Part shown: in pieces, positions 20,835 through 60,177 of the stretch | Layout: the number at the start of each line of letters is the position of its first letter | How positions within the stretch are numbered: the first letter of the stretch is position 1 | Assembly (NCBI GenBank): GCA_025059775.1 | Contig: JANXCW010000003.1 | Coordinates: 80,284-144,283, forward strand | Length of the DNA: 64,000 nucleotides | Direction: 5' to 3' | Origin: Armatimonadota bacterium | GTDB lineage: Bacteria > Sysuimicrobiota > Sysuimicrobiia > Sysuimicrobiales > Sysuimicrobiaceae | Notes under the pieces: generated by a model | Database searches by the model: none | Told to the model about the DNA's origin: nothing | The model's input: the letters and a program-made list of their open reading frames with translations, nothing else | Translations under genes and position numbers: made by a program

Positions 20835-21611
20835 TTGCGGGTTGCGGTCAATCTCTCCATCCTGTTCACGGAGTTCCCTTTCCTGGAACGGTTCGAGCAC
20901 GCCCGCCGGGCGGGGTTTTCCGCGGTGGAGTTCTGGTTCCCCTACGGGGAGGATCTGGGGGCCATCGCCCGGGAGCTGCGACGGCTACGGCTGGAACTCG
21001 TGCTCTTCAACCTGGAAGTGGGGAACTTCGCCGCTGGGGAACGGGGGTACGCATGTCACCCAGACCGGCGGGAGCGCTTCCGGGAAACGGTGGAGCTGGG
21101 GATCGAGGTGGCGCAGCATCTGGGATGCCGCCGCCTGAACGTACTGGTGGGAAACGCCCTCCCGGACATCCCCCGGGCGGACCAGCGCCGGGTTCTGGTG
21201 GAGAACCTCCGGGAGGCGGCCCGGGCCATTGAGCGCTGGGGAATCCTGCTGCTCTTCGAGGCCCTCAACCCCCACGATGCTCCCGACTACTTCCTGCACA
21301 CCTCCGCGGAAGCCTTCGCGATCCTGGAGGAGGTGGCGGAGCCCAACCTGAAGTTCCAGTACGACGTCTACCACATGCAGCGCAGCGAGGGGAACCTCAC
21401 CGACACCATCACCCGGCACGTGGACAGGATCGGCCACATCCAGATTGCGGATTCCCCGGATCGCGGACCGCCCGGCACCGGTGAGATCAACTTTCGCTAC
21501 CTGCTGCGCCGGATTGCGGCAAGCGGGTACACGGGATATGTAAGTGCGGAGTACCGGCCTCAGGGACCGAGCGCGGAGTCCTTCGGGTGGATGCGGGAGG
21601 TGCTTCCTTGA
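20835..21611 (+). CDS. Hydroxypyruvate isomerase-like TIM-barrel sugar-phosphate isomerase/epimerase (Hyi/OtnI family)
   Basis: TTG 20835, 7 nt after AGGAGG. LRVAVNLSILFTEFPFLERFEHARRAGFSAVEFWFPY... matches the Hyi N-terminus. ~258 aa. Confidence 0.75.
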   Translation: MRVAVNLSILFTEFPFLERFEHARRAGFSAVEFWFPYGEDLGAIARELRRLRLELVLFNLEVGNFAAGERGYACHPDRRERFRETVELGIEVAQHLGCRRLNVLVGNALPDIPRADQRRVLVENLREAARAIERWGILLLFEALNPHDAPDYFLHTSAEAFAILEEVAEPNLKFQYDVYHMQRSEGNLTDTITRHVDRIGHIQIADSPDRGPPGTGEINFRYLLRRIAASGYTGYVSAEYRPQGPSAESFGWMREVLP

Positions 21612-22387
21612 TGGAAAACCGGGTCAAACGCCGGCTGCAGCGGGGCCTTCCCGTGATCGGACACTGGCTGAGCTTTCCGTGCCCGGCGGTGGCGGAGCTG
21701 CTGAGTGCCTTCGAACCGGACTGGCTCGTGGTGGACACGGAGCACGGGCCCGCCAGCTGGGAGACGGTGGAGCACCAGCTGCGGGCCATGCGGGGGACCG
21801 GCGTGACCCCCATCGTGCGGGTGGCGGCCAACGACGCCGCCCTCATCAAGCTGGCCCTGGATCGGGGCGCCATGGGCGTGATCGTTCCCCTGGTGAGTTC
21901 TCCGGAGGAGGCCCGGAGGGCCGTCCTAGCCTCCCGCTACCCTCCCGAGGGGATTCGAGGGGTCGCGGGCACCCGGGCGAGCCGATACGGCCTGGACCTC
22001 CCGGCGTACTTCGCCGCCTGGAACCGGGAGGCCTTGGTGATCTGCCAAGTGGAGACGGTGCAGGGACTGGAGCAGGCGGAGGAGATTGCGGCCGTGGAGG
22101 GGGTGGACGTCCTCTTTGTGGGGCCCAACGATCTCTCCGCGAGCGTAGGGTGCTTCCGGCGGTTCGAGGCACCGGAGTACGAGGAGGCGGTGCAGAAGGT
22201 GCTCTCCGCGGCCCTGGGGCACGGCAAGGCCGCCGGGTACCTGGCCTCAGATCCGGAGGAGGCGCTCCGCCGCATCGCGCAGGGATTCCGGTTCGTGGGC
22301 ATCGCCAGCGACAGCCGCCTTCTGGCGGCTGCGGCCTCCTCAGCCCTGCAGCGGGTGCGGGCACACCTCCAGGAGGGAACGTCATGA
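21611..22387 (+). CDS. HpcH/HpaI-family 2-keto-3-deoxy-acid aldolase
   Basis: Start overlaps the upstream stop (TGATG). GHWLSFPCPAVAELL...VVDTEHGP...PIVRVAANDAALIKLALDRGAMGVIVPLV matches the HpcH family. Confidence 0.85.
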   Translation: MENRVKRRLQRGLPVIGHWLSFPCPAVAELLSAFEPDWLVVDTEHGPASWETVEHQLRAMRGTGVTPIVRVAANDAALIKLALDRGAMGVIVPLVSSPEEARRAVLASRYPPEGIRGVAGTRASRYGLDLPAYFAAWNREALVICQVETVQGLEQAEEIAAVEGVDVLFVGPNDLSASVGCFRRFEAPEYEEAVQKVLSAALGHGKAAGYLASDPEEALRRIAQGFRFVGIASDSRLLAAAASSALQRVRAHLQEGTS

Positions 22388-23301
22388 GGGTGACCCCGGA
22401 GACCACCCGGGTGGGCGTGATCGGCCTCGGGATCATGGGCAGACCCATGGCCCGCAACCTCCTGCGGGCCGGGTACCGCCTGGTGGTGCACAACCGGAGC
22501 CGGGCGCCCGTGGAGGAACTGGTGGCCCTGGGAGCCACGGATGGGGGATCCCCGAAGGGCGTCGGACAGGCCTCGGATGTGGTGATCACCGTCCTTCCGG
22601 ACACCCCGGACGTGGAGCGGGTGCTCTTCGGGCCAGAGGGACTCGTGGAGGGGATGCGGCCGGGCTCGGTGCTCATCGACATGAGCACCATATCGCCCGA
22701 GGCCACCCGGAGCTTCGCGAAACGGTTGCACGAGCGCGGGATCGAGATGCTGGATGCACCCGTCAGCGGTGGACAGCGGGGTGCGGAGGAGGGAACCCTC
22801 GCCATCATGGTGGGAGGGCCCGCGGAGGTCTTCCAGCGATGCCGTCCCCTCTTCGAGATCCTGGGGCGGCACGTCGTGCACCTGGGACCCCATGGAGCGG
22901 GGCAGGTGTGCAAGGCCTGCAACCAGATCGTGGTAGCCCTCACCCTCCAGGCGGTCTCCGAGGCCTTGGTGCTGGCGGAGCGGGCAGGGGTGGATCCCGC
23001 AAAGGTGCGGGAGGCTCTGCTCGGGGGCTTCGCCTATAGCCGCATCCTGGAGGTGCACGGGCAGCGCATGCTGGAGGGCAACTTCGTCCCGGGCTTTCGG
23101 GTGGAGCTGCACCACAAGGATCTGCGCCTTGCCCTGGAGGCCGGACGGGCCTACGGGGTGCCCCTTCCCGGAACCGCCATCACCCACGAGCTCCTGGGAG
23201 CCCTGGTGGCCACGGGCCGCGGAAAGCTGGACCACTCGGCCCTGGTCCTGCTCGCGCGGCAGCTCGCGGGTGGGGGCGGGCTTGACGCGGGGTCCGTATA
23301 A
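22384..23301 (+). CDS. 2-hydroxy-3-oxopropionate (tartronate semialdehyde) reductase / beta-hydroxyacid dehydrogenase family
   Basis: ATGA overlap. VGVIGLGIMGRPMARNLLRAGYRLVVHNRS (NAD-binding) and the 6-PGDH-like C-terminal domain. The 21544..23301 ORF is an artefactual upstream extension. Confidence 0.85.
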   Translation: MRVTPETTRVGVIGLGIMGRPMARNLLRAGYRLVVHNRSRAPVEELVALGATDGGSPKGVGQASDVVITVLPDTPDVERVLFGPEGLVEGMRPGSVLIDMSTISPEATRSFAKRLHERGIEMLDAPVSGGQRGAEEGTLAIMVGGPAEVFQRCRPLFEILGRHVVHLGPHGAGQVCKACNQIVVALTLQAVSEALVLAERAGVDPAKVREALLGGFAYSRILEVHGQRMLEGNFVPGFRVELHHKDLRLALEAGRAYGVPLPGTAITHELLGALVATGRGKLDHSALVLLARQLAGGGGLDAGSV

Positions 23302-23376
23302 TTAAGGCGGATCGGGGGCGGTGATAGGGGCGGCCTTGCGCAGGAGGGTCTACAGAATAGGCGCGGAGAGGGCCGG

Positions 23377-24318
23377 ATGAGGTCGTCCACTGCTGCTGTC
23401 CGGCCCTGGGTGAGCTTCCTCACGCGGGGGGGCCGCTGGCTTCGGAGGGAGCGGGTGTTCGCGCCCCTGCTCGTTTTGCCCGCCTTCCTGTACGTAGTCC
23501 TCCTCGTAGGTCTGCCCTTCCTCTATGCGCTCTACCTGAGCCTCACGGACGCCACCACCGGGAACCCCTACGGGAGCTTCATCGGGTTGCGGAACTTCTC
23601 AGAGGTGGTCCAGGACCGGGTCTTCCGCACGGCCCTCAAGAACACCTTCGTCTTCACCCTCTCCGCACAGGGGGCGGTGATCCTGCTCTCCAATGTCCTC
23701 GCCCGGGCCCTGAGTACGGAGTTCCGGGGCAAGGGGTTCGTGCTCTTTCTCCTCCTGCTCCCCTGGGTGGCCCCGGTCTCGCTCTCCACCATCGGCTGGC
23801 TGTGGATCCTCCACGCCCGGTTCAGCGTCCTGGACTGGGTGGCCTGGCAGCTGGGATTGCTGCCCCACGGCCAGAACACCTTCTGGCTTGGGAAACCGAA
23901 TCTGGCTATGTTCTCCGTGGTGATGGTGCACGTGTGGCGGATGCTGCCCTTCGCCACCGTGGTCCTCCTGGCTGGCCTTACCTCCCTGCCCCGGGACCTG
24001 CTGGACCAGGCGGAGGTGGATGGGGCGAGGTTCTGGCGGAAGCTCTTCCAGATCGAGCTCCCCCTGCTGCTTCCCATCATGAGCGTGGCGGTTCTGTTCG
24101 GCACTATCTTCACCTTCACGGACATGGCGGTGGTGTATGTGCTCACCCGGGGCGGGCCCTTTGACACCACCCAGGTGCTCAGCAGCCTCGCCTTCTTCAA
24201 GGGGATCGTGGGCGGAAACCTCAGCGTAGGGGCGGCCATCTCCCTCTTCCTGTTCCCCGTGCTCCTTGTGGCGGCGGTCCTCATCCTGCGAGCCGCCCGG
24301 CGGGCGGAGGTGACGTAG
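23377..24318 (+). CDS. Carbohydrate ABC transporter permease (MalF/UgpA-type)
   Basis: Six-TM permease with the EAA-like motif region (..LDQAEVDGARFWRKLFQIELPLLLP..). Confidence 0.85.
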   Translation: MRSSTAAVRPWVSFLTRGGRWLRRERVFAPLLVLPAFLYVVLLVGLPFLYALYLSLTDATTGNPYGSFIGLRNFSEVVQDRVFRTALKNTFVFTLSAQGAVILLSNVLARALSTEFRGKGFVLFLLLLPWVAPVSLSTIGWLWILHARFSVLDWVAWQLGLLPHGQNTFWLGKPNLAMFSVVMVHVWRMLPFATVVLLAGLTSLPRDLLDQAEVDGARFWRKLFQIELPLLLPIMSVAVLFGTIFTFTDMAVVYVLTRGGPFDTTQVLSSLAFFKGIVGGNLSVGAAISLFLFPVLLVAAVLILRAARRAEVT

Positions 24319-25172
24319 TGCGGAAGCGCGGAAACTGGCAGAGAGCTCTGCGGGTCGGCGGGCGTGCCCTGATCCTGGTGGCCTTCTGCACCTTCACCTC
24401 CTTCCCCTTTGCCTGGATGCTCATCACCGCCTTCAAGCGGAATTCCGACCTCTACAACCCCGTGAACAACCCCTTTTGGTTTAACGAACCTCCCACCCTG
24501 GAGCACCTGGAGTACGTGTTCACCAAGACCCTGTATGCCAACTGGATCGTGAACACCGCCCTGGTGGGGGTGGTGGTGGTGGCCATCACCCTCCTGCTGG
24601 CCCTGCCCGCGGGCTACAGCCTCAGCCGGTTTTTGGGACCGTGGGGCACGCAGCTGGGGATCGGGATGTTCCTCGTGTACCTGGTTCCTCCCACCCTGCT
24701 CTTCATCCCTCTCGCCCGGGTGGTGAGTGAACTGCGGCTGCACAACACCCTCTGGTCCCTCATCCTGATCTACCCCACCATCACCGTGCCCTTCGCCACC
24801 TGGCTGCTGATGGGGTTCTTCAAGTCCATCCCTCCGGAGCTGGAGGAGCAGGCCCTGGTGGACGGGTACAGCCGACTGGGCGCCTTCTGGCGGGTCACCC
24901 TGCCCCTCGCGGTTCCGGGTATCATCGCGGTGGTGATCTTCAGCTTTACCATCTCCGCTCAGGAGTTCGTCTACGCCCTCTCCTTCGTCACCAACGTGGC
25001 CCGCAAGACGGTGAGTGTGGGGGTCCCCGCGGACATGGTCCGCGGGGATATCTTCGACTGGGGGCCGCTCATGGCGAGCGCGTTCCTGGCGAGTGTGCCC
25101 GTGGCTATCCTGTACTACTTCGTGATAGACAAGTTCGTGCGTGGGTTCACCACGGCGGGAGCGATCCGATGA
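24318..25172 (+). CDS. Carbohydrate ABC transporter permease (MalG/UgpE-type)
   Basis: GTG start overlaps the upstream TAG by 1 nt. EQALVDGYSRLGAFWRVTLPLAVPG signature. Confidence 0.85.
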   Translation: MRKRGNWQRALRVGGRALILVAFCTFTSFPFAWMLITAFKRNSDLYNPVNNPFWFNEPPTLEHLEYVFTKTLYANWIVNTALVGVVVVAITLLLALPAGYSLSRFLGPWGTQLGIGMFLVYLVPPTLLFIPLARVVSELRLHNTLWSLILIYPTITVPFATWLLMGFFKSIPPELEEQALVDGYSRLGAFWRVTLPLAVPGIIAVVIFSFTISAQEFVYALSFVTNVARKTVSVGVPADMVRGDIFDWGPLMASAFLASVPVAILYYFVIDKFVRGFTTAGAIR

Positions 25173-26743
25173 GAAGGGGGGTGCACGAGGACATGTCGGA
25201 CGAGAGGCAGGAACTGCGGTGGGTACGGGTCGCGGAGGGGAGGTGGCGCCTCGTGACCCGGAGGGAGTTCTTGCGGCTTGTGGGCGCGGGGCTCACCGCG
25301 GCCAGTTTCGGACCGTTCATCTTTACGGAGAAGACCGCGGCTCAGCCCGTGACCCTGCGCATCCTGCAGTGGAGACACTTCGTTCCACCCTACGACGAAT
25401 GGTTCAACAAGGTGTTCGCGCCCCGGTGGGGGGAGAAGAACGGCGTACGGGTGGTGGTGGAGAACGTGGGACTGGCGGAAATCCCCGCCATTGCCGCGGG
25501 GGAGGCGGCCCGGGTGGCCGCGGGTGCGGATCCGGGGCACGACATGATCCAGTACCTCACCCCGCCCGCCACCCTGGAGCGGCAGGTGGACACGGACGCC
25601 CACCGGGAGGTCATCGAGGAGCTCAAGCGCAAGGTAGGACCGTACATCCCGCTTGCGGAGAAGAGCACCTACAACCCCGTGACCCGGCGGTACTTCGGGA
25701 TCTCAGACAACTTCGTGCCGGACCCCATGCACTACCGGGGGTGGATGTGGCGGGAAGCCTCCGGTAAGGCCCTGGGGCGCTCCACACCGGGACCGGTGAC
25801 GTGGGACGACGTCCGCAAGGTGGGGCGGGAGCTGCGACGCATGGGCCACCCCGTGGGCCTGGGGCTGAGCCAGGAGATCGACACGGGGATGTGGCTGCGC
25901 AGCCTCCTCTACTCCTGGGGCACCGGCGAGCAGGACGAGGGCGGCAACGTGATCCTGGATGTCCCGCCCTACCGACAGCGGACCCTGGACGCCCTGAAGT
26001 TCGTGCGGGATCTCTACAACGAGACCATGTTTGCGGGGGTCTTCGCGTGGACCGCGGCCTCCAACAACGAGGAATTCCTGGCAGGCCGTATCTCCATCGC
26101 CATGAACGCCATCTCCATCACCCGGACCGCCCAGGCCCTGGCCGCCCAGGCCCTCAAGCGGGGAGAGGATCCCAAGACCAGCAAGGCCGTGCTCCTCGCG
26201 CGGGATACCCTGATCACGGAGCGGGCGCCGCAGGGACCGGCAGGAGCCCGCGGGCTGGAGCACGTCATGGGGGTTTACTTCATCTGGAAGAACCGGCCCC
26301 GTCCCGTGCGGGAGGCGGCGAAGAAGCTGCTCATCGACCTCATCCTGAGCTACGATCCCGACGTGGCAGCCCGGGAGGGTTGGGCCCCCGGGAAGTTCCA
26401 GGCTTCCCAGGCCTACGACTACCCCACCTTCGAGAACGCCATCCCCAAGGCCAAGCGGCTCGCATACCTGCGCAACGATCCCGTGAGCCGGGCCGCGGGA
26501 GACCGTCCGGATAAGCTGGTGACCATCGAGACCGCATACGAGTGGGCACACAACGTGGGGTGGCCCGGGCCCTCGAGTGCGGCCATCGACGAGGTGTTCA
26601 ACACGTGGATCCTCAACGTGATGTTCGCCCGGGTGGCCCAGGGGATCGACACGCCCGAGCAGGCCCTGGACGCCGCGGCCCGTCAGATCCGCCGGGTGTT
26701 CCAGAAGTGGCGGGAGCAGGGGCTGGTGGGCGGTCGGCGGTGA
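25169..26743 (+). CDS. ABC transporter extracellular solute-binding protein (family 1) with Tat-type signal
   Basis: ATGA overlap with the permease. TRREFLRLVGAGLTAASF twin-arginine signal. An alternative GTG start at 25253 (M-TRREFL) has a strong GGAGGGGAGGTGG RBS and may be the true start. Confidence 0.8.
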   Translation: MRRGVHEDMSDERQELRWVRVAEGRWRLVTRREFLRLVGAGLTAASFGPFIFTEKTAAQPVTLRILQWRHFVPPYDEWFNKVFAPRWGEKNGVRVVVENVGLAEIPAIAAGEAARVAAGADPGHDMIQYLTPPATLERQVDTDAHREVIEELKRKVGPYIPLAEKSTYNPVTRRYFGISDNFVPDPMHYRGWMWREASGKALGRSTPGPVTWDDVRKVGRELRRMGHPVGLGLSQEIDTGMWLRSLLYSWGTGEQDEGGNVILDVPPYRQRTLDALKFVRDLYNETMFAGVFAWTAASNNEEFLAGRISIAMNAISITRTAQALAAQALKRGEDPKTSKAVLLARDTLITERAPQGPAGARGLEHVMGVYFIWKNRPRPVREAAKKLLIDLILSYDPDVAAREGWAPGKFQASQAYDYPTFENAIPKAKRLAYLRNDPVSRAAGDRPDKLVTIETAYEWAHNVGWPGPSSAAIDEVFNTWILNVMFARVAQGIDTPEQALDAAARQIRRVFQKWREQGLVGGRR

Positions 26744-27567
26744 GTCCGGCGAGCACCGCAGGGGTCAAGCTCCGGGGGGGCGCGCGGCGGAGCCAGGGAA
26801 TCGTTCCCTCCGTCCTTCGGGCCATCCGGATCCTGGAGGCCGTGGGCAGCGCCGCGCACCCCCCGACCCTGGGAGAACTCGCGCGGATCCTGGGAATCCC
26901 CAAGAGCAGCCTACACGATCTCTGCACCACCCTCCTGCAGGAGCGCCTGCTGGAGCGCACGGACGGAGGGGGCTTCCGGATCGGGGTGCGGGTGTTGGAC
27001 TTCTACAGGGCGTACGACGCCGCCACCCACCTGGGCACGGAGTTCCACCGGGTATGCGAGGAGCTGGTTCCCCGACACGAGGAGACCATTGTGCTCTCCG
27101 TGCTGGATGGACGGGAGGTGGTGTACGTGGCCTGCCGGAACGGCACCCAGCCCATCGCGGTGAACTACCGGATCGGCCTGCGCCTTCCGGCCCACACCAC
27201 AGCCACGGGAAAGGCCATTCTGAGCACCCTCCGGGAGGAGGAGGTGCGCGCCCTGTTCTCCGGCCAGCCCCTGGTACGCCCCACCCGGCGCAGCATCGGG
27301 CAGGTGGAGGAACTCCTCGAGGAGCTGCGAACGACCCGGGCCCGGGGATACTCCGTGGACGACGAGGAGACGGTGGAAGGGATGTGCTGCGTGGGAGCTC
27401 CCCTGTGCGTATCCGGAGACGTACGCGCGGGAGTCGCCTTCAGCATGGTGAAGGCCAGAACCCGGCGGGATCGCCTCCAGGATCTCGGCGGGAAAATCCG
27501 ACACCTCGCCACCGTGCTGTCCGAACGGCTGGGAGGACGGGTTCCGGTCTGCCGTCCGCGGGGATAA
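26740..27567 (+). CDS. IclR-family transcriptional regulator
   Basis: GTGA overlap with the binding-protein gene. N-terminal wHTH (SVLRAIRILEAVGSAAHPPTLGELARILGIPKSSLHDLCTTLLQERLL) and C-terminal IclR effector domain. Confidence 0.85.
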   Translation: MSPASTAGVKLRGGARRSQGIVPSVLRAIRILEAVGSAAHPPTLGELARILGIPKSSLHDLCTTLLQERLLERTDGGGFRIGVRVLDFYRAYDAATHLGTEFHRVCEELVPRHEETIVLSVLDGREVVYVACRNGTQPIAVNYRIGLRLPAHTTATGKAILSTLREEEVRALFSGQPLVRPTRRSIGQVEELLEELRTTRARGYSVDDEETVEGMCCVGAPLCVSGDVRAGVAFSMVKARTRRDRLQDLGGKIRHLATVLSERLGGRVPVCRPRG

Positions 27568-29182: not shown

Positions 29183-30046
29183 ATGAAACCGGCGCCGTTT
29201 CGGTACGTACGGCCGCAGACCCGCATGGAGGCCATGGAGGCGCTTGCCCGCTACGGGGAGGACGCCAAGGTGCTGGCGGGGGGGCAGAGTTTGGTGCCTC
29301 TGATGAATCTGCGGCTCGCCCGCCCCAAGGTGTTGGTGGACATCAACCGCGTCGCGGAGCTGGGAACCCTGGAGCGGCGGGATGGAGTGCTGATCCTGGG
29401 AGCCCTCGTCCGGCACCGGCAGGTGGAGCGGGATGTGAGGGTAACGGAAGCCTGTCCCATCCTGAGTCGGGCCGCAGCCCACATCGGGTTTCCCGCCGTC
29501 CGGAACCGCGGGACCGTGGGAGGAAGTCTCGCCCATGCGGATCCCGCGGCAGAACTCGGTTGCGTGCTTCTCGCCACGGGGGCCGTGGTGGTGCTGGAGT
29601 CCACAGACGGCCGACGGGAAGTGCCGATCGAAGATCTGTTCGTGGGTCCCTACACCACCTGCATCCGCCCTGAGGAACTCCTGGTGGAGGTCCGGGTACC
29701 CGTGTTCGGAGAGACCACCCGCTGGGGATTTGCGGAGTTCACCCGCCACGAGGGTGGGTTCGCCCTAGCCCTGGCCGCCTGCGTACTCCACCTGGACGGG
29801 CAGGGCAGGGTGGCTGCTGCCCGGGTGGCGGTGGGCGGTGCAGGACCCGTTCCGGTAAGGCTTCGCGAGGCCGAGCAGGTCCTACAGGGCGCTCCCCTCT
29901 CGGAGGAGCGGGTGGCCGAGGCTGCCTCCTTCGCCTGCGCCGTGGAGGGCTACGACGACGTCCACGCGCCCGCCTGGTACCGCCAGCGGCTGGCAGGCTG
30001 GCTCGTACGCCGGGTGCTTCAACAGGCCGTGGGAGAGGAGATGTAA
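29183..30046 (+). CDS. Molybdopterin dehydrogenase FAD-binding subunit (CoxM/XdhB-like medium subunit)
   Basis: MKPAPFRYVRPQT..VLAGGQSLVPLMNLRLARP...AVRNRGTVGGSLAHADPAAE matches the FAD_binding_5/CO_deh_flav_C family. Confidence 0.85.
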   Translation: MKPAPFRYVRPQTRMEAMEALARYGEDAKVLAGGQSLVPLMNLRLARPKVLVDINRVAELGTLERRDGVLILGALVRHRQVERDVRVTEACPILSRAAAHIGFPAVRNRGTVGGSLAHADPAAELGCVLLATGAVVVLESTDGRREVPIEDLFVGPYTTCIRPEELLVEVRVPVFGETTRWGFAEFTRHEGGFALALAACVLHLDGQGRVAAARVAVGGAGPVPVRLREAEQVLQGAPLSEERVAEAASFACAVEGYDDVHAPAWYRQRLAGWLVRRVLQQAVGEEM

Positions 30047-30540
30047 TGGACCGTATCTCCATCGCCCTGTCGGTCAACGGCAAGCCCTACCAGTTGGCGG
30101 TAGAGCCGCGCCGCCTGTTGGCGGACGTCCTGCGCCGCGATCTGGGGTTCACGGGCGTGCATCTGGGGTGCGAGCACGGGGTGTGCGGCGCGTGCACCGT
30201 GCTCCTGGATGGGGAGGTGGTGCGTTCCTGCCTGATGTTCGCGGTGCAGGCGGACGGATATGAGATCCTTACGGTGGAGGGGCTGAACACCTCCGGGGAA
30301 CTTCACCCCGTCCAGCGGGCGTTCATCGAGGAGTTCGGGTTCCAGTGTGGGTTCTGCACGCCCGGCATGATCCTCTCCGCATACCGCCTGCTGCAGGAGC
30401 ATCCGAATCCCTCGGAGTACGAGATCCGTCGTGCTCTTGCGGGCAACCTGTGCCGCTGCACGGGATACGTGGATATTGTGCGGTCCGTTCAGCGCGCTGC
30501 TGTGCTCCTCACGCAGAGGGAGGCATACCGTGCTCCCTAG
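30046..30540 (+). CDS. (2Fe-2S)-binding small subunit of a molybdenum hydroxylase (CoxS-like)
   Basis: [15 protein letters not shown] (plant-type ferredoxin cluster) and QCGFCTPGM...CRCTGY (second cluster). Start overlaps the upstream TAA by 1 nt. Confidence 0.9.
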
Positions 30541-32887
30541 CGGCCGGTACGTGGGCCAGCGCGTCCCCCGTTGGGAGGACCGTCGGTTCGTGGAGGGCCG
30601 GGGACGGTACCTGGATGACCTCAGTCTTCCGGATCAGGTAGAGGTCGCTTTCGCCCGCAGTCCTTACGCCCATGCGCGCATTCGGCGCATCGACCTACAG
30701 GCCGCCCGGAGCCATCCGGAGGCGATCGGGGTGTATGCGTGGGAGGATCTGCGGGACCTCCTGCGTCCCTACTGGACCATGCCGCGGGGTCCTATCCGGC
30801 AGGCGCGCGTCACACCCCTGGCTAGCGAAAAAGTGCGGTGGGTCGGAGAACCGGTGGCCGTGGTGGTGGCGCGGGATCGGTATGTGGCGGAGGACCTGTG
30901 TGAGCTCGTGACGGTGGAGTACGAGCCGCTTGCCCCGGTGGTAGACGCGCTGGAGGCGATGAAGCCCGACAGCCCCCGGCTGTACGAGGAGTGGCCGGAC
31001 AACGTGGTCTCCCACCAGACCTTCCAGGCGGGGAATCCCGAAGCAGAGCTCAGGGGCTGTGCCGTAGTGGTCCGGAAGCGCTTCCGCAGCAATCGGGTCA
31101 CCGCGGTGCCCCTGGAGGGCCGGGGAGTTCTGGCTCGCTGGGACCCGCGGGAGGAAACCCTCACGGTGTGGATGGGGCACCAGGATGTGCACCTCGCCCG
31201 GGCAGTGCTCTCCGAGATCCTGGGCTTGCCCCTGAGCCGGATCCGCGTGGTCAGCCCGGACGTGGGGGGAGCCTTCGGAATCAAGTTGCCCATCTATCCG
31301 GAGGAGATGGTGGTGTGCGCCCTCTCAAGGCTTTTGGGGCGGCCCGTGAAGTGGGTGCAGGATCGACGGGAGAGCCTGCTGGGCGACACGCACGCGCGGG
31401 AAGCCGTGGTGGATGTGGAGGCGGGCTTCGACGCCGCGGGGAAGCTCCGGGCCATGCGGATCCACGTGATCAGCGATGCGGGCGCCTACGCGGTGGCGGG
31501 GCGGGGTCCCATCATCGAGGGCAGCATGCTGGCCCGGGAGCTCCCGGGACCGTACGATCTGCGCCACTACGCCTACACCCTGGACGTGGTGATGACCAAT
31601 AAGGCACCCGTGGCCGTGTACCGGGGCGTGGCCATCCCCGTGAGTACCTTTGTCATGGAACGGGTGATGGACCTCGCCGCGGACGCCCTCCAGATGGACC
31701 CCGCGGAGATCCGGCGCCGGAACCTCATCCGCACGTTCCCCTACGCGACGGTCACCGGGCACGTCTACGACGCGGGTCAGTACCTGGAGGGCCTGGAGAA
31801 GCTGCTGGAACTCGTGGACTACGGAAGGTGGAGGGCGGAGCAGGCGCGGCTGCGGGAGCAGGGGCGCTACCTGGGCGTGGGGATCTGCTGTCTTGTGGAC
31901 GCCACCGCCCGGGGAGGCGGGTTCTACGGTCGGCTGGGGCTGAAGGCGGCCACCCAGGAGGGCTGCATCCTCCGGGTGGATCCCTCCGGCGGGATCATCG
32001 CGGCTTTGGGGACCACCACGCAAGGGCAGGGGCTGCACACGGCGCTCGCGCAGCTCATCGCGGACACCCTCGGGGTTCCCCTGGAGCGGGTCACCGTGGT
32101 GATGGGGGATACCGCCACCACCCCATATGGCGGAGGAGCCTGGGCCAGCCGGGGGGCCGTGGCGGGTGGAGCCGTGGCCCTGCTGGCGGCCCGGAGGTTG
32201 CGGGAGAAAATCCAGCACATCGCGGCCCACCTGCTGGAAGCCGCGCCGGAGGACATCGAACTGGCGGAGGGACGTGCCTTTGTGCGGGGTACCACGGCCC
32301 GCAGTCTGTCGCTGGAGGAGATCGCCCACACCGCCTACTTCGTGGCCGTGGACCTGCCCGCTAGAATGGAGCCAGGCCTGGAGGTGATGGTCCACTGGGA
32401 GCCGGAGATCCCCGCCACCTTTGCATATACGGCGCAGGCCATGGTGGTGGAGGTGCAGCCCGAGACGGGGGCCGTGAACATTTTGAAATACGTCGTGGTG
32501 GAGGATTGCGGCCCCATCATCAACCCGGGGCTCGTGGACGGGCAGCTGCGGGGCGGAATCCTGCAGGGCCTGGGCCAGGCCCTCTACGAGGACCTCGTGT
32601 ACGACGCCCAGGGGCAGCTGCTCACCTCCACCCTCCTGGACTACCTCCTTCCCGGGTTCTGTGAGGCGCCGGAAGTGGAGATCCACCACCTCTCGACCCC
32701 GTCCACGCGGACCGTGGGGGGGCTGCGGGGGATGGCGGAGAGTGGGACCGCTGGTGCGCCCGCGGTGCTGGCGAATGCGGTGGCGGATGCCCTCAAGCCG
32801 TTCGGAGCGGAAGTCACCGCCCTTCCGCTCAGTCCCGCGCGGGTGGCGGAGCTGATACGGGGTCAGAAACCGACGAAAGGAGGGTGA
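30530..32887 (+). CDS. Molybdopterin-binding large subunit of a xanthine-dehydrogenase-family hydroxylase (not a canonical CO dehydrogenase)
   Basis: GTG 30530 after GAGGGAGG. Ald_Xan_dh_C/C2 architecture. The active-site loop reads AVYRGVAIP, not the CODH form I AYRCSFR or form II AYRGAGR. Confidence 0.8.
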   Translation: MLPSGRYVGQRVPRWEDRRFVEGRGRYLDDLSLPDQVEVAFARSPYAHARIRRIDLQAARSHPEAIGVYAWEDLRDLLRPYWTMPRGPIRQARVTPLASEKVRWVGEPVAVVVARDRYVAEDLCELVTVEYEPLAPVVDALEAMKPDSPRLYEEWPDNVVSHQTFQAGNPEAELRGCAVVVRKRFRSNRVTAVPLEGRGVLARWDPREETLTVWMGHQDVHLARAVLSEILGLPLSRIRVVSPDVGGAFGIKLPIYPEEMVVCALSRLLGRPVKWVQDRRESLLGDTHAREAVVDVEAGFDAAGKLRAMRIHVISDAGAYAVAGRGPIIEGSMLARELPGPYDLRHYAYTLDVVMTNKAPVAVYRGVAIPVSTFVMERVMDLAADALQMDPAEIRRRNLIRTFPYATVTGHVYDAGQYLEGLEKLLELVDYGRWRAEQARLREQGRYLGVGICCLVDATARGGGFYGRLGLKAATQEGCILRVDPSGGIIAALGTTTQGQGLHTALAQLIADTLGVPLERVTVVMGDTATTPYGGGAWASRGAVAGGAVALLAARRLREKIQHIAAHLLEAAPEDIELAEGRAFVRGTTARSLSLEEIAHTAYFVAVDLPARMEPGLEVMVHWEPEIPATFAYTAQAMVVEVQPETGAVNILKYVVVEDCGPIINPGLVDGQLRGGILQGLGQALYEDLVYDAQGQLLTSTLLDYLLPGFCEAPEVEIHHLSTPSTRTVGGLRGMAESGTAGAPAVLANAVADALKPFGAEVTALPLSPARVAELIRGQKPTKGG

Positions 32888-51845: not shown

Positions 51846-51885
51846 CGTAACCGTTCCTCGAGGCTGAGGGAGGAGGTGGGTGGAG

Positions 51886-53330
51886 ATGGCAGAAGGGCGG
51901 AAAGTAGGGAACGAAGGCGGGGAGCGGATCTCCCGACGGGAGTTCCTCAGGCGGGCCGCGGTAGGCACCGCGGTGCTGTGGCTCCGTACGTGTTCGTGCG
52001 GAACTACGCCGCGGCCCAGCAGCGGGAGCTCCGGATCATGACCTGGAGCCACTTCGTGCCCGCCTTCGACGAGTGGTTCGACCCCTTCGCGGAGCGGTGG
52101 GGACGCGAGCGGGGGATCCGGGTCACCGTGGACCACATTTCGTTTGCGGACATCGTCCCGCGGGCCAACGCGGAGGTGGCCGCTCAGCAGGGCCACGACC
52201 TGTTCTTCTTCCTGGCTCCGCCCAGCGCCTTCGAGCCGCACGTCCTGGACCTGCGGGACATCAACCAGGAGGCGGAACGGCGGTACGGCCCCATGGTGCC
52301 GCTCGTGCGCAAGAGCGTGTACAACCCCAACACCCGGAAGTTCTATGGGTTCTCCGACAACTGGGTGCCGGATCCAGGCGACTACCTGCAGAGCGTGTGG
52401 ACCGCGGTGGGCTACCCCAACGGGCCAACGACCTGGGACGACCTGATCCGGGCCGGGAACGAGATCAAGCGCCGGTTTCCGGAGATCCAGATTCCCATCG
52501 GCATCGGCTTCAGCCAGGACATCGACTCCAACATGGCCTGCCGGGCCATCCTGTGGTCCTTCGGGGCCAGCATCCAGGATGCGAACGAGAACGTTGTCCT
52601 CAACAGCGAGCAGACCATCCGGGCGGTGGAGTACGGGGTGCGGCTCTTTCGGGAGTGCATGAACCCCGCGGTCCTGAGCTGGAACGCGGCCAGCAACAAC
52701 CAGGCCCTCAACGCCCGCCAGACCGCCTACATCCTGAACTCCATCTCCGCGTACCGTACGGCTCAGGACAACCGGCTTCCCGTGGCGGACGACATCTTCT
52801 TCGTGCCCGCCCTGCGGGGACCGGGAGGGCGGTGGGCCAGCGAGCACGTGATGGGCGTGTGGGTGATCTGGCGGTTCAGCCGCAACCCCGACAACGCCAA
52901 GGAGTTCCTGCTGCACCTGTTGGAGAACTACCGGGATGCGGTGCTGGCGAGCAAGCTCTACAACTTCCCCTCCTTCGTGGGCTCCGTGGCGGATCGGCGG
53001 GTGCCCGTGGCCCAGAAGCCCGACGAGGGGCGGAAGTGGATCCGGGCTGCCTGCCTGCGGGATCCCTTCGGGTCCAGGCCCCTCAACAAGCTCGCGGTGC
53101 TCGCGGATGCGGAGCAATGGTCCACGAACATCGGCCACCCCGGCCCTGCGAACCCCGCGGAGGGTGAGATCTTCGACACCTACCTCATCCCCGACATGTT
53201 CGCGCAGGCGGCCACGGGCCGTCTCTCCGTGCGGGAGGCCGTGGCGCAGACCCACCGCTGGTGTCTGGAGATCTTCCAGAAGTGGCGGCGCCAGGGATTC
53301 GTGGGGGGTGGTGACCGGGACCGGCGGTGA
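51886..53330 (+). pseudogene. Sugar ABC transporter solute-binding protein, apparently frameshifted within the signal peptide (paralogue of 25169..26743)
   Basis: Strong RBS GAGGGAGGAGGTGGGTGGAG then ATG 51886 encoding a Tat signal (MAEGRKVGNEGGERISRREFLRRAAVGTAVLW) that runs into a stop at 52039-52041. The mature domain (APYVFVRNYAAAQQRELRIMTWSHFVP...) lies in the other frame (51876..53330) and aligns along its length with the 25169 protein. The frames differ by one nucleotide near 51979-51983. Confidence 0.6.
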
Positions 53331-53361
53331 GCGAAAATGGCGATGTGTGGGAGCGGTGGCC

Positions 53362-54420
53362 ATGGGGTATGTGGAGATCCGAGACCTCCATAAGCACTTC
53401 GGGGACGTCCGGGCCGTGAACGGGGTGAACCTGTCGGTCGAGGAGGGTGAGCTGCTCGTCCTCCTCGGCCCCTCCGGTTGCGGCAAGACTACCCTCATGC
53501 GCATGATTGCGGGCCTGGAGGTGCCCACCCGCGGTGAGATCTACATCGGCGGGCAGCTGGTGGACGAGAACGTGCCGCCCCGGGCCCGGGGCATCGCCAT
53601 GGTCTTCCAGAGCTACGCCCTCTATCCCCACAAGACCGCGTTCGAGAACATCGCGTTTCCCCTGGAGGCCATGCGCCTGGCCCGGGAGAGCATCCGGGAG
53701 CGGGTGGTTCGCAGCGCCCAGATGTTCGGAATCGAGCGGCTGCTGGGCCGCAGGCCGCGGCAGCTGTCGGGTGGGGAGCGGCAGCGGGTGGCCCTGGCCC
53801 GGGCCGTGGTGCGGGACCCGAAGCTCTTTCTGCTCGACGAGCCCCTCAGCAACCTTGATGCGAAGCTGCGGGCGGTGGCACGGTTCGAGCTGAAGCAGCT
53901 GCAGCGACACCTGGGGACCACCACCATCTACGTAACCCACGATCAGGTGGAGGCCATGGGACTCGGAGATCGCATCGCGGTTATGGACGCGGGCCGGATC
54001 CGCCAGATCGGGAAGCCCCAGGAAGTCTACGACGATCCCGCGGACACCTTTGTGGCCACCTTCCTCGGCTCTCCGCCCATGAACCTCATCGAGCAGGATT
54101 CCCATACCCTCGTGGGGTTCCGGCCGGAGGCGTTTTTGCCCCGCAGCGTGTTCGATCCCGGGGAGGACGTGGTCACCTACTCCCTTCGGGTGCGGGAGGT
54201 GGAGTACCTGGGCTCGGACCGCTTGGTGTACGGGTACCTGGAGGAGGAACAGCGCACGGACCAGCCCGTGATCGCCGCGGTCCCCGCCACCATCACCGTG
54301 CCCATCGCGGAGGGGGAGGTGTACGCGTTCGCGGTTCCCCGACGGGCCCTCCGGTTTTTCGATCGGAACACGGGCCGCCGGCTGGAGCGGGCGGGAGCGG
54401 TGCGCCTCTCCACCCCCTAG
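53362..54420 (+). CDS. Sugar ABC transporter ATP-binding protein (MalK/UgpC-type)
   Basis: ATG 53362. GPSGCGKTT, LSGGERQRVALARA, LLDEPLSNLD and the C-terminal TOBE-like regulatory domain. The 52936..54420 ORF is an upstream extension. Confidence 0.9.
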   Translation: MGYVEIRDLHKHFGDVRAVNGVNLSVEEGELLVLLGPSGCGKTTLMRMIAGLEVPTRGEIYIGGQLVDENVPPRARGIAMVFQSYALYPHKTAFENIAFPLEAMRLARESIRERVVRSAQMFGIERLLGRRPRQLSGGERQRVALARAVVRDPKLFLLDEPLSNLDAKLRAVARFELKQLQRHLGTTTIYVTHDQVEAMGLGDRIAVMDAGRIRQIGKPQEVYDDPADTFVATFLGSPPMNLIEQDSHTLVGFRPEAFLPRSVFDPGEDVVTYSLRVREVEYLGSDRLVYGYLEEEQRTDQPVIAAVPATITVPIAEGEVYAFAVPRRALRFFDRNTGRRLERAGAVRLSTP

Positions 54421-54428
54421 GCGGGCCC

Positions 54429-55373
54429 ATGGCCCTGCGGCGCTCCGCGGAGTTCCCGGTTCCTGCCCCCGTGGCGCAGGCCCGACGCCGTACCCTGGCG
54501 GACCGGGAATCCGTCCTCGGTCCCCTTCTGCTCGCACCGGCCCTGCTCTACGTGATCCTTCTGGTGGGGGTCCCCTTCGTCCTCGCCATCCTCCTCAGCT
54601 TCTCCTCCGCGGTGGCGGGAGGGCTGGAGTTCTCCTGGGTGGGATTCCGGAACTTCCAGGTACTGCTCTCCGACAGCCAGTTCCACCGGGCCCTGCAGAA
54701 CACCCTGCGGTTCATGGTCGTCTCGCAGCTGCTGGTGATGGTGCTCGCCACCGTGGCGGCCCACGTACTGGATGCTGCCTTTGTGGGCAAGCGACTGGTG
54801 CGCTCCCTGCTCCTCCTGCCCTGGGCGGCTCCCGTGGCGCTGTCCTCCATGGCCTGGGTGTGGATCTTCGACTCCACCTTCAGCGTGATCAACTGGACCG
54901 CGAAGAAGCTGGGCCTCCTGCAGGGGTGGTGGTACTGGTTCGGAGACCCCGGGCTCGCCACCGTTGCCATCACCACCGTGCACGTGTGGCGCACCTTCCC
55001 CTTCGCCACCGTGGTGATCCTGGCAGGCATGGCCGCCATTCCCCAGGAGATCCGGGAGGCGGCCCTGATGGACGGAGCAGGGTTCTGGCGCAGGCTGTTT
55101 CACGTGAACCTGCCCATGCTGCTCCCGGTGGTGGCGGTGGCGGTGCTCTTCGGCCTTGTGTTCACCGCCACGGACTTCAGCGTGGTGTGGCTCCTGACCC
55201 GGGGAGGGCCCTACAACAGCACCCACGTGCTCAGCACCCTCGCCTTCCAGAGGGGAATCCTGGGCGCGAGCCTGGGCCAGGGGGCCGCGGTGGCCATCTT
55301 CCTCCTGCCCATCCTTCTGGTGGTGGCGGTGCTCCTGCTGCGGGTGGCCCGGAGGGCGGAGGTGGGGACTTGA
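54429..55373 (+). CDS. Carbohydrate ABC transporter permease (MalF/UgpA-type), paralogue of 23377..24318
   Basis: Same motifs as 23377 (..EIREAALMDGAGFWRRLFHVNLPMLLP..). Confidence 0.85.
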   Translation: MALRRSAEFPVPAPVAQARRRTLADRESVLGPLLLAPALLYVILLVGVPFVLAILLSFSSAVAGGLEFSWVGFRNFQVLLSDSQFHRALQNTLRFMVVSQLLVMVLATVAAHVLDAAFVGKRLVRSLLLLPWAAPVALSSMAWVWIFDSTFSVINWTAKKLGLLQGWWYWFGDPGLATVAITTVHVWRTFPFATVVILAGMAAIPQEIREAALMDGAGFWRRLFHVNLPMLLPVVAVAVLFGLVFTATDFSVVWLLTRGGPYNSTHVLSTLAFQRGILGASLGQGAAVAIFLLPILLVVAVLLLRVARRAEVGT

Positions 55374-56323: not shown

Positions 56324-57361
56324 ATGCCCCTTGCCACGGAAGTCTATGGGCAGGCGGCCAGCACCCTGCGCAACGTGCTCTTTGAGGTCAAGAAGGTCAT
56401 CGTGGGCCAGGACCTCATGCTGGAGCGGCTCCTGGTGGCCCTCCTTGCCCGAGGCCATGTGCTCATCGAGGGGGTCCCGGGGCTCGCGAAGACCCTCACG
56501 GTGAAGACCCTGGCCCGGGTCATCGGTGGAGAGTTCAAGCGGATCCAGTTCACCCCGGACCTCGTGCCCGCGGACCTCATCGGCACCCGCATCTACAACC
56601 AAGCCCGGGGGACCTTCGAGACGGAGCTGGGACCCATCTTTGCCAACCTGGTGCTGGCAGACGAGATCAACCGGGCTCCCGCCAAGGTGCAGTCGGCGCT
56701 TCTGGAGGCCATGCAGGAGCGGCAGGTCACCATCGGCAAGCAGACGTTTAAGCTTCCGGATCCCTTCCTCGTCATGGCGACCCAGAACCCCATCGAGAGC
56801 GAGGGAACGTACCCCCTGCCGGAGGCGCAGCTGGACCGGTTCATGTTCAAGGTGGTGATCGGGTATCCCTCCGTGCACGAGGAGATCGAGGTGGTGGAGC
56901 GGGGCACCGGAGAGCGCCCTCCGGAGGCGAACCAGGTGATCGACACGGAGCAGCTGCGGGAGCTGCAGCGGATTACGGACACCGTGTACGTGCCCCCGCG
57001 GGTGATGGAGTACGCGGTCTCCCTGGCGGTGGCTACCCGGGACCCGGGCGGCGTGGGGCTGCCGGAGCTGCGCCGGTACATCTCCTTCGGGGCAAGCCCC
57101 CGGGCCCCCCTGAACCTGGTGCTGGGTGGGAAGGCCCTGGCAGTCCTGCGGGGGCGGGAGTACGTGCTGCCCGAGGACGTGCGGGATCTGAGCTTTGAGG
57201 TCCTGCGGCACCGTATGGTGCTCTCCTACGAGGCCCTGGCGGAGGAGGTGAGCCCCGACCAGATCATCACCCGCATCCTGGAGCGGGTGCCCCTTCCCAA
57301 GGTGCACATCGGGGATCCGTATGGAGACACCCGAGCAGATCTTGAGGCGCCTCGAGTTTAA
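56324..57361 (+). CDS. MoxR-family AAA+ ATPase
   Basis: VIVGQDLMLERLLVALLARGHVLIEGVPGLAKT (Walker A), LADEINRAPAKVQSALLEAMQE, ATQNPIE matches MoxR/AAA_3. Confidence 0.9.
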   Translation: MPLATEVYGQAASTLRNVLFEVKKVIVGQDLMLERLLVALLARGHVLIEGVPGLAKTLTVKTLARVIGGEFKRIQFTPDLVPADLIGTRIYNQARGTFETELGPIFANLVLADEINRAPAKVQSALLEAMQERQVTIGKQTFKLPDPFLVMATQNPIESEGTYPLPEAQLDRFMFKVVIGYPSVHEEIEVVERGTGERPPEANQVIDTEQLRELQRITDTVYVPPRVMEYAVSLAVATRDPGGVGLPELRRYISFGASPRAPLNLVLGGKALAVLRGREYVLPEDVRDLSFEVLRHRMVLSYEALAEEVSPDQIITRILERVPLPKVHIGDPYGDTRADLEAPRV

Positions 57362-58211
57362 GGTCGTCCGGCGGCTGGACGGGTTCCTGTTCGGCGACTA
57401 CACGGGAATCTTCTACGGCCCCAGCCTCGACCTCGCGGAGGTCCGGGAGTACATCCCGGGGGACGAAGTCCGGCGCATCGACTGGAACGTCACCGCCCGC
57501 ACCGCCCGCCTGCATGTCCGCCAGTACCTGGAGGAGAAGGAGCTCACCGCGTGGTTCCTCGTGGACCTCTCCCCCTCCATGGGCTTCGGCACCCGGAGGG
57601 TCCTCAAGCGGGAGTTGGCCGCGGAGTTCTGCGGGGCCGCCGCCTACATCGTGGCACGGCACGGGGACAAGGTGGGGGCTTTGCTCTTCCCGAACCGGAT
57701 CCTGCTCCCACCCCGGACTGGCCGGCGACACGTCCTGCGGCTGGTGCACGCCCTCACCCGGACGGAGAAGGTTCCAAACGGAGGCCGCACGGACCTCGCG
57801 GAGGCCCTCCGCTCCCTGCACCGAATGCTGCGGCGGCGGTCGCTGTTGTTTCTGGTCTCCGATTTTCTGGCCCCGGACGGGTGGGAGGGACCGTTGCGGC
57901 ACCTGGCCCACCGGCATGACGTGATCGCGGTGCACATCACGGACCCCGCGGAACGGGAACTGCCAGACGTGGGCGTGGTGACCTTCGAGGATCCAGAGAC
58001 CGCGGAGCAGGTGCGGGTGGACACCTCAGATCCCGCGGTGCGCAAGGCCTACCGGGAGCTCGTGGCCGCGCGGGAGGAGCGGCTGCGGAGGGTCTTCCGG
58101 AGTGCGGGCGTGGACGTGCTTACCCTCTCCACCCACACCAGCATCGTGGAGCCCCTGGTGCGGTTCGTGGCGTTCCGGAGGAGGCGGCGGTGGAGTTCAC
58201 GTGGCCGGTGA
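57321..58211 (+). CDS. DUF58-domain protein (MoxR partner)
   Basis: ATG 57321, overlapping the MoxR gene by 41 nt. RRLDGFLFGDYTGIFYGPSLDLAEVREYIPGDEVRRIDWNVTART is the typical DUF58 core. Confidence 0.8.
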   Translation: METPEQILRRLEFKVVRRLDGFLFGDYTGIFYGPSLDLAEVREYIPGDEVRRIDWNVTARTARLHVRQYLEEKELTAWFLVDLSPSMGFGTRRVLKRELAAEFCGAAAYIVARHGDKVGALLFPNRILLPPRTGRRHVLRLVHALTRTEKVPNGGRTDLAEALRSLHRMLRRRSLLFLVSDFLAPDGWEGPLRHLAHRHDVIAVHITDPAERELPDVGVVTFEDPETAEQVRVDTSDPAVRKAYRELVAAREERLRRVFRSAGVDVLTLSTHTSIVEPLVRFVAFRRRRRWSSRGR

Positions 58212-59203
58212 TGCTGGTGGGGTTGGCGGGTGTGCCTCTGCTGGTGGCGGGGTGGTGGGCCCTGCGCCGCTACCAGGCCAGAGCCGCCACCGCATTCGCG
58301 GACCCCCACCTGCTGCCCCTGCTGCGCCGGGGACGGAGGGTGCGGGCACCGCACCTGCCGCTCTACCTGTACCTCGGGGCCATCGTGCTGTTCGTCCTGG
58401 CCTCCGCCCGTCCCGTGGGAGCCATCCTCCTCCCCGCGAACCGGGCCGCGGTGGTGCTCGCGGTGGACATGAGCAAGAGCATGGTGGCCACCGACCTCCC
58501 GCCCAGCCGCCTGGAAGTCGCCAAGCAGGTGGCCCGGGAATTCCTGCGGACTGTACCCCGCAGCGCCAAGGTGGGACTCGTGTCCTTCAGCGACTACGCA
58601 CAGGTGCTGGTGCGGCCCACCACCCAGCATCAGGACGTGCTGGAGGCCTTAGAACGCCTGCAGCCCACCCAGGCCACCTCCATCGGCTCAGCCATCCTCA
58701 CCGCGGTGCGAGCCCTCCCTGGCCGGGAACAGGCGGGGCAGGAGCTCCTCACAGGGCAGCCGGGGATGCTCCCGATTCCGCCTCCCACGCCCGCGCCCAC
58801 CCAGGAGCCTCTTCCGCCCGGCGCCATCCTTCTGATCTCAGACGGTGTGAGCAACCTCGGTGTGGATCCCTTCCAGGCGGCCCAGGTGGCCCGGCGGTTC
58901 GAGGTGAAGATCTACACGGTGGGGGTAGGAACCCCGCAGGGCAGTGTTCAGACGGTGGACGGCCAGCTGGTCTTCATCCCCTTCGACCCCACGGGGCTGC
59001 AGCAGATCGCGGCGATCACGGGCGGCCGGTACTTCTACCCTCCCACCAGTGAGGACCTGCGGCGGGTGTACCGGGAGCTGGGCCGGTCCTTCGGATGGGA
59101 GCGGCAGCGTATGGAGCTTTCGGTCCTCTTCGCCGCGGCCGGAGCGCTCGCCATGATGGCAGGGGGAGCGCTCTCCCTCGCGTGGCATCGGAGGCTCCCG
59201 TGA
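58190..59203 (+). CDS. VWA-domain membrane protein (BatA-like)
   Basis: N-terminal TM helix, vWA/MIDAS region (VVLAVDMSKSM...S.S...), C-terminal TM. Confidence 0.75.
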   Translation: MEFTWPVMLVGLAGVPLLVAGWWALRRYQARAATAFADPHLLPLLRRGRRVRAPHLPLYLYLGAIVLFVLASARPVGAILLPANRAAVVLAVDMSKSMVATDLPPSRLEVAKQVAREFLRTVPRSAKVGLVSFSDYAQVLVRPTTQHQDVLEALERLQPTQATSIGSAILTAVRALPGREQAGQELLTGQPGMLPIPPPTPAPTQEPLPPGAILLISDGVSNLGVDPFQAAQVARRFEVKIYTVGVGTPQGSVQTVDGQLVFIPFDPTGLQQIAAITGGRYFYPPTSEDLRRVYRELGRSFGWERQRMELSVLFAAAGALAMMAGGALSLAWHRRLP

Positions 59204-60177
59204 GCTTCCAGTGGCCCGCGGCCCTGGTGAGCCTGTTTCTGCTTCCCCTCTTGACCTGGGGATACCGGGGGCTACTGCGGCGGCGAAGCGCTCGGGCGGT
59301 CATGCATCCGGACGCCGCGACCCTCCTGACCGCCGCGGCCCGGGGAAGGCGCTGGTGGCAGCACCTGGGCGCGATCCTGTTCGGCAGCGCCCTCGCGGCG
59401 GCCCTGATGGCGCTTGCCCGGCCCGTGGCGCCGCTTCCGGTCCCCGCCAGCAACGTGTACGTGGTGCTCTCCCTGGACGTGAGCCGCAGCATGCTGGCGG
59501 AGGACATCCCGCCGAACCGCCTGGAGGCCACCAAGCGGGCGGCGGTGGAGTTCGTGCGGGCCATGCCCCGGGACGCCCGGGTGGGGCTTGTGACCTTCAG
59601 CTCGTACGCCTCCCTCCTGGTGCCGCCCACCACGGACCACGAGCGGGTGATCCGCGCCATCGAGGGGCTCGTGGCGGAGTTCGCCACCGCTATCGGGGAC
59701 GGGCTGTTGGAGGCCGTCTACGCCCTCCCGGGGCGGGAGCGACCCCAGGACCTCTCCACTCCCCCCCGAGCCCCTCAGGGCAAGCTCCCCCCCGGTACCG
59801 TGGTGCTCATGAGCGACGGACAGAGCAACCGGGGCGTCCCGCCCCTGGACGCGGCCCGCATCGCCCGGGATCTCCAGGTAAAGGTGTTCACGGTGGGGGT
59901 AGGGACTCCCGAGGGCACCTTCCTGAACCTCGGCGGCCGCATGATCTGGGTGCGCCTCGATGAGGAGACGCTCAAGGAGATCGCGGCCATCACGGACGGC
60001 ACCTATCACCACGCTTCCACCGCCTCGGAGCTGCGGCGCGTTTACCGTACCCTGGGCCGGGTGATCGGGTGGGAGAAGCGACCCACAGAGGTCACCGCCC
60101 TCGCGGCGGCCGCGGCCGCCGTCCTCCTCGCAGGCTCCGTGGCCATCTCCATGCTCCAGCTCCACCGCCTGCCCTGA
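59200..60177 (+). CDS. VWA-domain membrane protein (BatB-like), paralogue of the preceding gene
   Basis: GTGA overlap. VVLSLDVSRSM MIDAS motif. Same architecture as 58190. Confidence 0.75.
   Translation: MSFQWPAALVSLFLLPLLTWGYRGLLRRRSARAVMHPDAATLLTAAARGRRWWQHLGAILFGSALAAALMALARPVAPLPVPASNVYVVLSLDVSRSMLAEDIPPNRLEATKRAAVEFVRAMPRDARVGLVTFSSYASLLVPPTTDHERVIRAIEGLVAEFATAIGDGLLEAVYALPGRERPQDLSTPPRAPQGKLPPGTVVLMSDGQSNRGVPPLDAARIARDLQVKVFTVGVGTPEGTFLNLGGRMIWVRLDEETLKEIAAITDGTYHHASTASELRRVYRTLGRVIGWEKRPTEVTALAAAAAAVLLAGSVAISMLQLHRLP

Follow-up and report, generated by a model that had tools for sequence, protein, structure and literature searches.

Does the second of two sugar ABC transporters encoded in the 64-kb stretch of DNA analysed here (the whole stretch is referred to as the window) still possess an exported receptor? 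The window, with a G+C content of 68%, comes from an uncultivated organism of CSP1-3 (Sysuimicrobiota), a hot-spring phylum (PMC11604079). A preliminary description of this DNA placed a single-base indel within the signal peptide of the transporter's substrate-binding protein, and offered as its cause either a genuine pseudogene, by which the transporter would have lost its receptor, or a sequencing error. We find that the locus is orthologous to a CUT1-type sugar-binding protein that is exported by the Tat route and widely conserved, and that it is one base short in this assembly; the question is then whether that base is missing from the organism as well.

Results

An export signal and a binding domain in different frames

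The features on which the argument rests are collected in Table 1. The start codon of the binding-protein gene, ATG 51886, lies, in alignments, opposite those of the intact orthologues in ‘Candidatus Sysuimicrobium calidum’ (L068) and in a metagenome sequence (L081). The GGAGG of its Shine-Dalgarno element lies 9 nt ahead of the ATG, and the element, which aligns with a counterpart upstream of the orthologous ATG in L068, stands at the 3' end of the 76-nt spacer that follows the stop codon (51809) of a zinc-dependent alcohol dehydrogenase gene. A scan for promoters and terminators between 51600 and 53500 returned nothing informative.

From this ATG the frame reads MAEGRKVGNEGGERISRREFLRRAAVGTAVLWLRTCSCGTTPRPSSGSSGS, and it was correctly described as a Tat signal that runs for 51 codons and ends at TGA 52039-52041; its sequence up to that stop is MAEGRKVGNEGGERISRREFLRRAAVGTAVLW-LRTCSCGTTPRPSSGSSGS, opening with the Tat signal ISRREFLRRAAVGTAVLW. 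Here SRREFLRR is followed by the hydrophobic AAVGTAVLW, as in the pattern S/T-R-R-x-F-L-K plus a hydrophobic stretch, and the 51-residue peptide scores 19.7 bits against the Tat-signal model TIGR01409 of NCBIfam (cut-off 16.7; the restored protein described below scores 16.5 bits). The binding domain lies in another frame, within an ORF of 484 aa (51876-53330) that matches PF01547 (SBP_bac_1; 55.6 bits, cut-off 26, E 1.1e-14) and PF13416 (SBP_bac_8; 40.9 bits, cut-off 27, E 2.8e-10), both domains lying from residue 66 onwards. When the 64 kb was segmented by codon usage (Viterbi), coding signal for the gene likewise began in the mature frame, at 51985. In the window, then, export signal and domain are discontinuous.

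A signal peptide read from GTG 51876 in the mature frame was considered and rejected, since the N-terminus of that ORF, MGGDGRRAESRERRRGADLPTGVPQAGRGRHRGAVAPYVF, is rich in arginine, has only about eight hydrophobic residues and lacks a hydrophobic core; the preliminary description was right that this call yields a binding protein with no signal peptide. As a start codon GTG 51876 was rejected too, because it overlaps the last base of the Shine-Dalgarno element and so leaves zero spacer.

Table 1. Coordinates of the frameshifted binding-protein gene, its operon partners and its paralogue within the window
Feature	Position	Strand	Remark
Shine-Dalgarno element GGGAGGAGG, serving ATG 51886	51868..51876	+	sequence read directly
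True 5' end of the gene: start codon and Tat n-region/h-region, codons 1-32, ATG frame	51886..51981	+	
Twin-arginine motif S-R-R-E-F-L-R-R	51928..51951	+	TIGR01409; conserved in ~130 orthologues
12-bp palindrome GCACCGCGGTGC, adjoining the lesion on its upstream side	51965..51976		one of three CCGCGG sites
Missing-base site, CTGTG-GCTCC	51979..51983	+	CTGGGGGCGCC in L068, CTCGGGGCGCC in L081, CTGGGAGCCCC in L001/L083
Remainder of the gene, other frame: end of h-region, c-region (..VRNYAAA/QQ), mature CUT1-type solute-binding domain	51982..53330	+	stop 53328-53330
ATGA: premature TGA of the signal frame overlaps the ATG of conserved ..RIMTWSHF..	52038..52041	+	sequence read directly
ABC ATPase, MalK-like, C-terminal TOBE-type tail, intact	53362..54420	+	Pfam ABC_tran 7e-36
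Permease 1, BPD_transp_1, intact	54429..55373	+	52% identical to permease 23377-24318
Permease 2, BPD_transp_1, intact, TTG start overlapping the preceding stop codon	55370..56233	+	62% identical to permease 24318-25172
Binding protein of the first system, a paralogue; Tat motif TRREFLRL in frame	25169..26743	+	

One base is missing relative to the orthologues

Alignment of the window's DNA to four relatives (L001, L068, L081 and L083) opened, in each case, one single-base gap in the window within CTGTG-GCTCC at 51979-51983, exactly where the indel had been suspected. The affected codon encodes Gly in those relatives (..AVLGAPYVF..) and directly follows Leu-31 of the signal peptide. The restored reading originally offered, ...AVLW-APYVF..., therefore stands in that one added base does return a continuous frame, but its Trp is only one of four residues (V, L, W or C) that can result, depending on the base lost, and the relatives carry Gly. 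The substitutions that flank the lesion (GTA/GTG and GCT/GCG) are synonymous in the restored frame.

With one base added, the protein aligns without gaps, between its RREFLR motif and its C-terminus, to the paralogue at 25169-26743 (E 6e-93, 35% identity), which bears out the earlier alignment of the mature domain with that protein, and it is 87-96% identical to the intact orthologues over their full length. Its best database match is 87% identical over 100% of the length, the other orthologues retrieved are 72-86% identical, and all those retrieved are 480-490 residues long; one of them (P0002) reads ..ISRREFLKRAAVGTAILGAPYVFVRNYAAAQQRELRIMTW.., a sequence that the two halves of the window gene match almost exactly. 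These proteins come from Sysuimicrobiota/CSP1-3 and Armatimonadota-labelled MAGs (for instance L068 ORF 5956-7434, L081 and P0001-P0009), are annotated as ‘ABC transporter substrate-binding protein’, and share with the window their gene order, start codon, ribosome-binding site and SRREFL Tat motif; they differ from it in that their frame is continuous, whereas the window is one base short in the Gly codon.

The comparison with orthologous genes in relatives that had been proposed as a check was made by asking, at 133 orthologous loci, whether the Tat motif shares its frame with the conserved ..TWSHFVP.. motif. The two were in frame at 131 of the 133, so the frameshift in the window does not reflect a chance resemblance to a signal peptide in the wrong frame.

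Among species-representative genomes the closest protein is that of L068 (96% amino-acid identity), and among metagenomes those of L081 and L082 (95-96%). The closest DNA found is again that of L068, at about 90% (89.9% over a collinear 13.4 kb), followed by L081 and L082 at about 89%; to judge by their sequences, L068, L081 and L082 represent sister species of the window's organism. Look-ups of five of the window's proteins as exact matches gave no hit. A further database protein (P0049, JGI, 718 aa), 82% identical to the binding protein, holds SBP_bac_8 and ABC_tran in a single chain, which suggests that the binding-protein and ATPase genes were read as one ORF in another metagenome, whether through a lost stop codon, a frameshift or an artefact of gene calling.

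Selection on the gene and its operon

The binding-protein gene is followed by genes for an ABC ATPase and two BPD_transp_1 permeases, the neighbours of a CUT1-type binding protein. The ATPase gene has zero frame-breaking indels relative to L068 and a dN/dS of about 0.05. For the mature binding domain dN/dS is 0.062 between the window and L068 and 0.040 between the window and L081, as compared to 0.054 between L068 and L081, both of which are intact; by this measure the binding-protein and ATPase genes are on a par as the two under the tightest constraint in the operon, and the permease genes are similarly constrained. No second indel or stop codon was found in the binding-protein gene.

An established or old pseudogene was rejected on these grounds: the ORF is disrupted, yet dN/dS is the same as among intact orthologues, with no further lesion and an intact operon. 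NCBI's PGAP annotation flags a class of ‘frameshifted’ pseudogenes, and the window gene resembles these in that a single indel splits a conserved ORF, leaving the start in the upstream piece and the domain in the downstream piece; it is unlike an established pseudogene in having neither secondary decay nor relaxed selection. In the spacer between the binding-protein and ATPase genes (53330-53362, compared with L068 7440-7455) there are several small indels, and thus indels accumulate freely where they are unselected.

Frame-breaking indels elsewhere in the window

The lesion is the only frame-breaking indel that we found in the 64 kb. In the 13.4-kb alignment to L068 the other indels were intergenic, multiples of three in length, or mutually compensating, with the exception of that at 51982. 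The Viterbi segmentation, adopted in place of a crude GC3 filter of ORFs that was too noisy, flagged several same-strand frame switches across the window, and all those checked against Pfam were true gene boundaries with full-length domains on either side; the screen is blind to short frameshifts at the 5' ends of other genes. An assembly riddled with indels was rejected on the strength of these two checks, and a sole frame-breaking indel found in 64 kb implies that the assembly is not generally prone to them.

Local sequence context and a second frameshift in a relative

The segment 51940-52060 is strongly self-complementary, contains three CCGCGG sites, folds at a predicted -65.4 kcal/mol (z = -3.35) and encloses the frameshift site, which lies between hairpins and beside the 12-bp palindrome. 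The self-pairing probably arises incidentally from the Ala-Ala codons GCC GCG G. The missing-base site (TGG) is not a homopolymer in the window, where no run of four or more bases occurs within 50 nt of it; the longest runs nearby are GG/GGG in the window and G5 in L068. The signal-peptide end of the gene does vary in length between close relatives, by in-frame differences of 6 nt and 9 nt.

The one other locus out of frame is that of L082, a 165-kb JGI contig (Ga0079995_1075839). Over 6.7 kb this contig matches the intact L081 at 99.05% identity, and the alignment contains just two indels. One of these is an extra G in L082, GCGGCGG[G]TGGGC, at 3040-3050 (compare L081 3065-3080); it falls within the same h-region, about 25 nt 5' of the site in the window. 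This +1 G separates SRREFLK from the mature domain and is independent of the lesion in the window; three substitutions lie within 38 nt around it, all of them synonymous in the intact frame. A short palindrome adjoins both lesions, GCACCGCGGTGC in the window and ACCGCGGT in L082. Two of the four sequences of the genus Sysuimicrobium are thus frameshifted, by different lesions within about 30 nt, as compared to none of about 129 elsewhere, which speaks for a context-dependent process, either a local problem of sequencing or assembly or a local mutational hot spot.

Discussion

We favour, at a probability of about 0.5, the reading that the gene is functional in the organism and that the missing base is an error of assembly or consensus, or else a transient minority allele caught by the assembly. 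In a GC-rich, palindrome-laden stretch a base might be lost in assembly or consensus calling, or a non-representative allele might be the one assembled. Purifying selection of the strength seen among intact orthologues, synonymous changes on either side of the lesion, the want of a second lesion and the intact partner genes would all be expected of a working gene, and the neighbouring lesion in L082 and the position of the site between hairpins, next to a palindrome, would fit a context-dependent cause. Two independent lesions within the same ~30 nt of a strongly constrained gene are, we reason, better explained by such a context-driven process than by two fixations of a loss of function. Against an artefact, no other frame-breaking indel was found in 64 kb, and a miscall of the usual homopolymer kind is not to be expected at a site that is no homopolymer. 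Furthermore, de Bruijn graph assemblers seldom incorporate random read errors, and indels in contigs are often those of real molecules.

The same selection data are equally predicted by a very recent real mutation, which would leave dN/dS and the neighbouring genes exactly as found. An artefact and a very young real lesion are roughly comparable in likelihood, and the second, a 1-bp deletion that is the majority allele of the strain or population, leaving the binding protein unexported and the second transporter without a dedicated receptor, has a probability only a little short of even. The lesion is unambiguous against some 130 continuous orthologues, the absence of any other frameshift found in the 64 kb makes the assembly look good, and the in-frame 6-nt and 9-nt differences reveal a signal-peptide end that is visibly prone to indels in nature. 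The published Sysuimicrobiota MAGs, which include the Sysuimicrobium type BF2_201808_bins_94, were sequenced on Illumina HiSeq X Ten, and according to the same paper metatranscriptome and metaproteome data are available for these springs (PMC11604079). As to the assembly, the lesion also has in its favour that Illumina data seldom contain indel errors. What weighs against a pseudogene of this kind is that, with no relaxed selection, no second lesion and intact partners, the event would need to be extremely recent, and that a loss-of-function allele would need to have reached the majority despite a dN/dS of about 0.05 and, if L082 is counted, have done so twice, independently, within 30 nt. The choice between pseudogene and sequencing error originally put forward has accordingly held up and been narrowed: a long-standing pseudogene is excluded, and a transporter that ‘lost its receptor’ is one of the two readings of comparable likelihood.

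Two further explanations bear on the clustering of the lesions and on the structure of the RNA. The GC-rich, palindromic segment might be a hypermutable hot spot at which populations toggle the export of the binding protein, in the manner of a contingency locus, and the two frameshifts among four Sysuimicrobium sequences, together with the strong predicted structure of the segment, are what such a locus would produce; context-dependent errors predict the same pattern, however, the sample is of four sequences, and there is no homopolymer or simple-sequence repeat of a length that supports phase variation. We regard this switch as improbable, and give equally low odds to the proposal that the segment is a real Sysuimicrobium hot spot from which export-null alleles such as those of the window and L082 recur and reach high frequency in hot-spring populations. 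Were there such a hot spot, it would amount in effect to a reversible switch that removes one sugar-uptake receptor from the cell surface. Alternatively, a programmed ribosomal frameshift or other recoding might connect the Tat signal with the mature domain as the mRNA is translated, given that the two frames overlap by about 60 nt (51982-52041) and that the surrounding RNA is predicted to be strongly structured. Between 51886 and 52041, however, there is neither an X XXY YYZ slippery heptamer in any frame nor an A or T run for transcriptional slippage, and the predicted structure encloses the site instead of lying 5-9 nt downstream of it. The frameshift is also absent from 131 of the 133 orthologues, including one 96% identical, and the only other case, L082, would require a shift in the opposite direction. 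Without a slippery site, and with the frameshift not conserved, programmed recoding is very unlikely, and we rank it below even the hypermutable switch.

If the sequence is taken as written, ribosomes starting at ATG 51886, the only well-placed start, would make a 51-residue peptide that ends with the stop at 52041, and the binding domain could arise only in a form lacking the export signal, any re-initiation at the overlapping ATGA giving a cytoplasmic protein devoid of a signal peptide. With its receptor unexported, the importer could work only if some other binding protein stood in; the paralogue in the window, at 25169-26743, is only 35% identical. A true lesion would represent a very fresh case of a transporter disabled through the export signal of its receptor alone, and would involve no new mechanism. 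An annotation should start the gene at ATG 51886 and mark it as frameshifted, and should not present it as a signal-less 484-aa protein from GTG 51876; a metabolic reconstruction of this organism should carry the sugar transporter as ‘probably functional’ and not as lost. Both the frameshift and the transporter gene are ordinary, nothing about them departs from known biology, and the correction to the annotation is the main value of the finding.

The paralogous system and neighbouring genes

The second sugar ABC system is indeed a paralogue of the first, as had been recognised from the outset: the two binding proteins are 35% identical and the permeases 52% and 62%. The first system (permeases 23377-24318 and 24318-25172, binding protein 25169-26743) likewise has a binding protein with a Tat signal, but its gene comes last, whereas in the second system the binding protein comes first. 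In contrast to the second system, no ATPase gene was found around the first within the region checked (20781-27567).

More widely, the window gene belongs to the same domain family (SBP_bac_1/SBP_bac_8) as the CUT1-family binding proteins and, like them, is in an operon with a MalK-like ATPase and two BPD_transp_1 permeases; unlike CUT1 binding proteins generally, it is out of frame with its own signal peptide. The nearest solved structure is that of the Thermotoga maritima maltose-binding protein MalE3 (PDB 6dtq), a weak and partial match (E 1.7e-9, residues 160-349).

Several neighbouring genes were also noted. Ahead of the first system are genes for a xylose-isomerase-like TIM barrel, an HpcH/HpaI aldolase and a 3-hydroxyisobutyrate-dehydrogenase-like enzyme, and after its binding protein there is an IclR-like ORF whose helix-turn-helix was read by eye. 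A three-gene cluster at 29183-32887, identified by eye from the translations, resembles the CoxM/CoxS/CoxL molybdenum hydroxylases; in it the stop codon of the first ORF (TGA 30044-30046) and the start of the second (ATG 30046) have one base in common, and there is also an overlap between the second ORF and the longest open frame of the third. Immediately after the transporter operon, at 56324-60177, come genes for a MoxR AAA+ ATPase and a DUF58/VWA protein, both assigned by Pfam, and then further ORFs.
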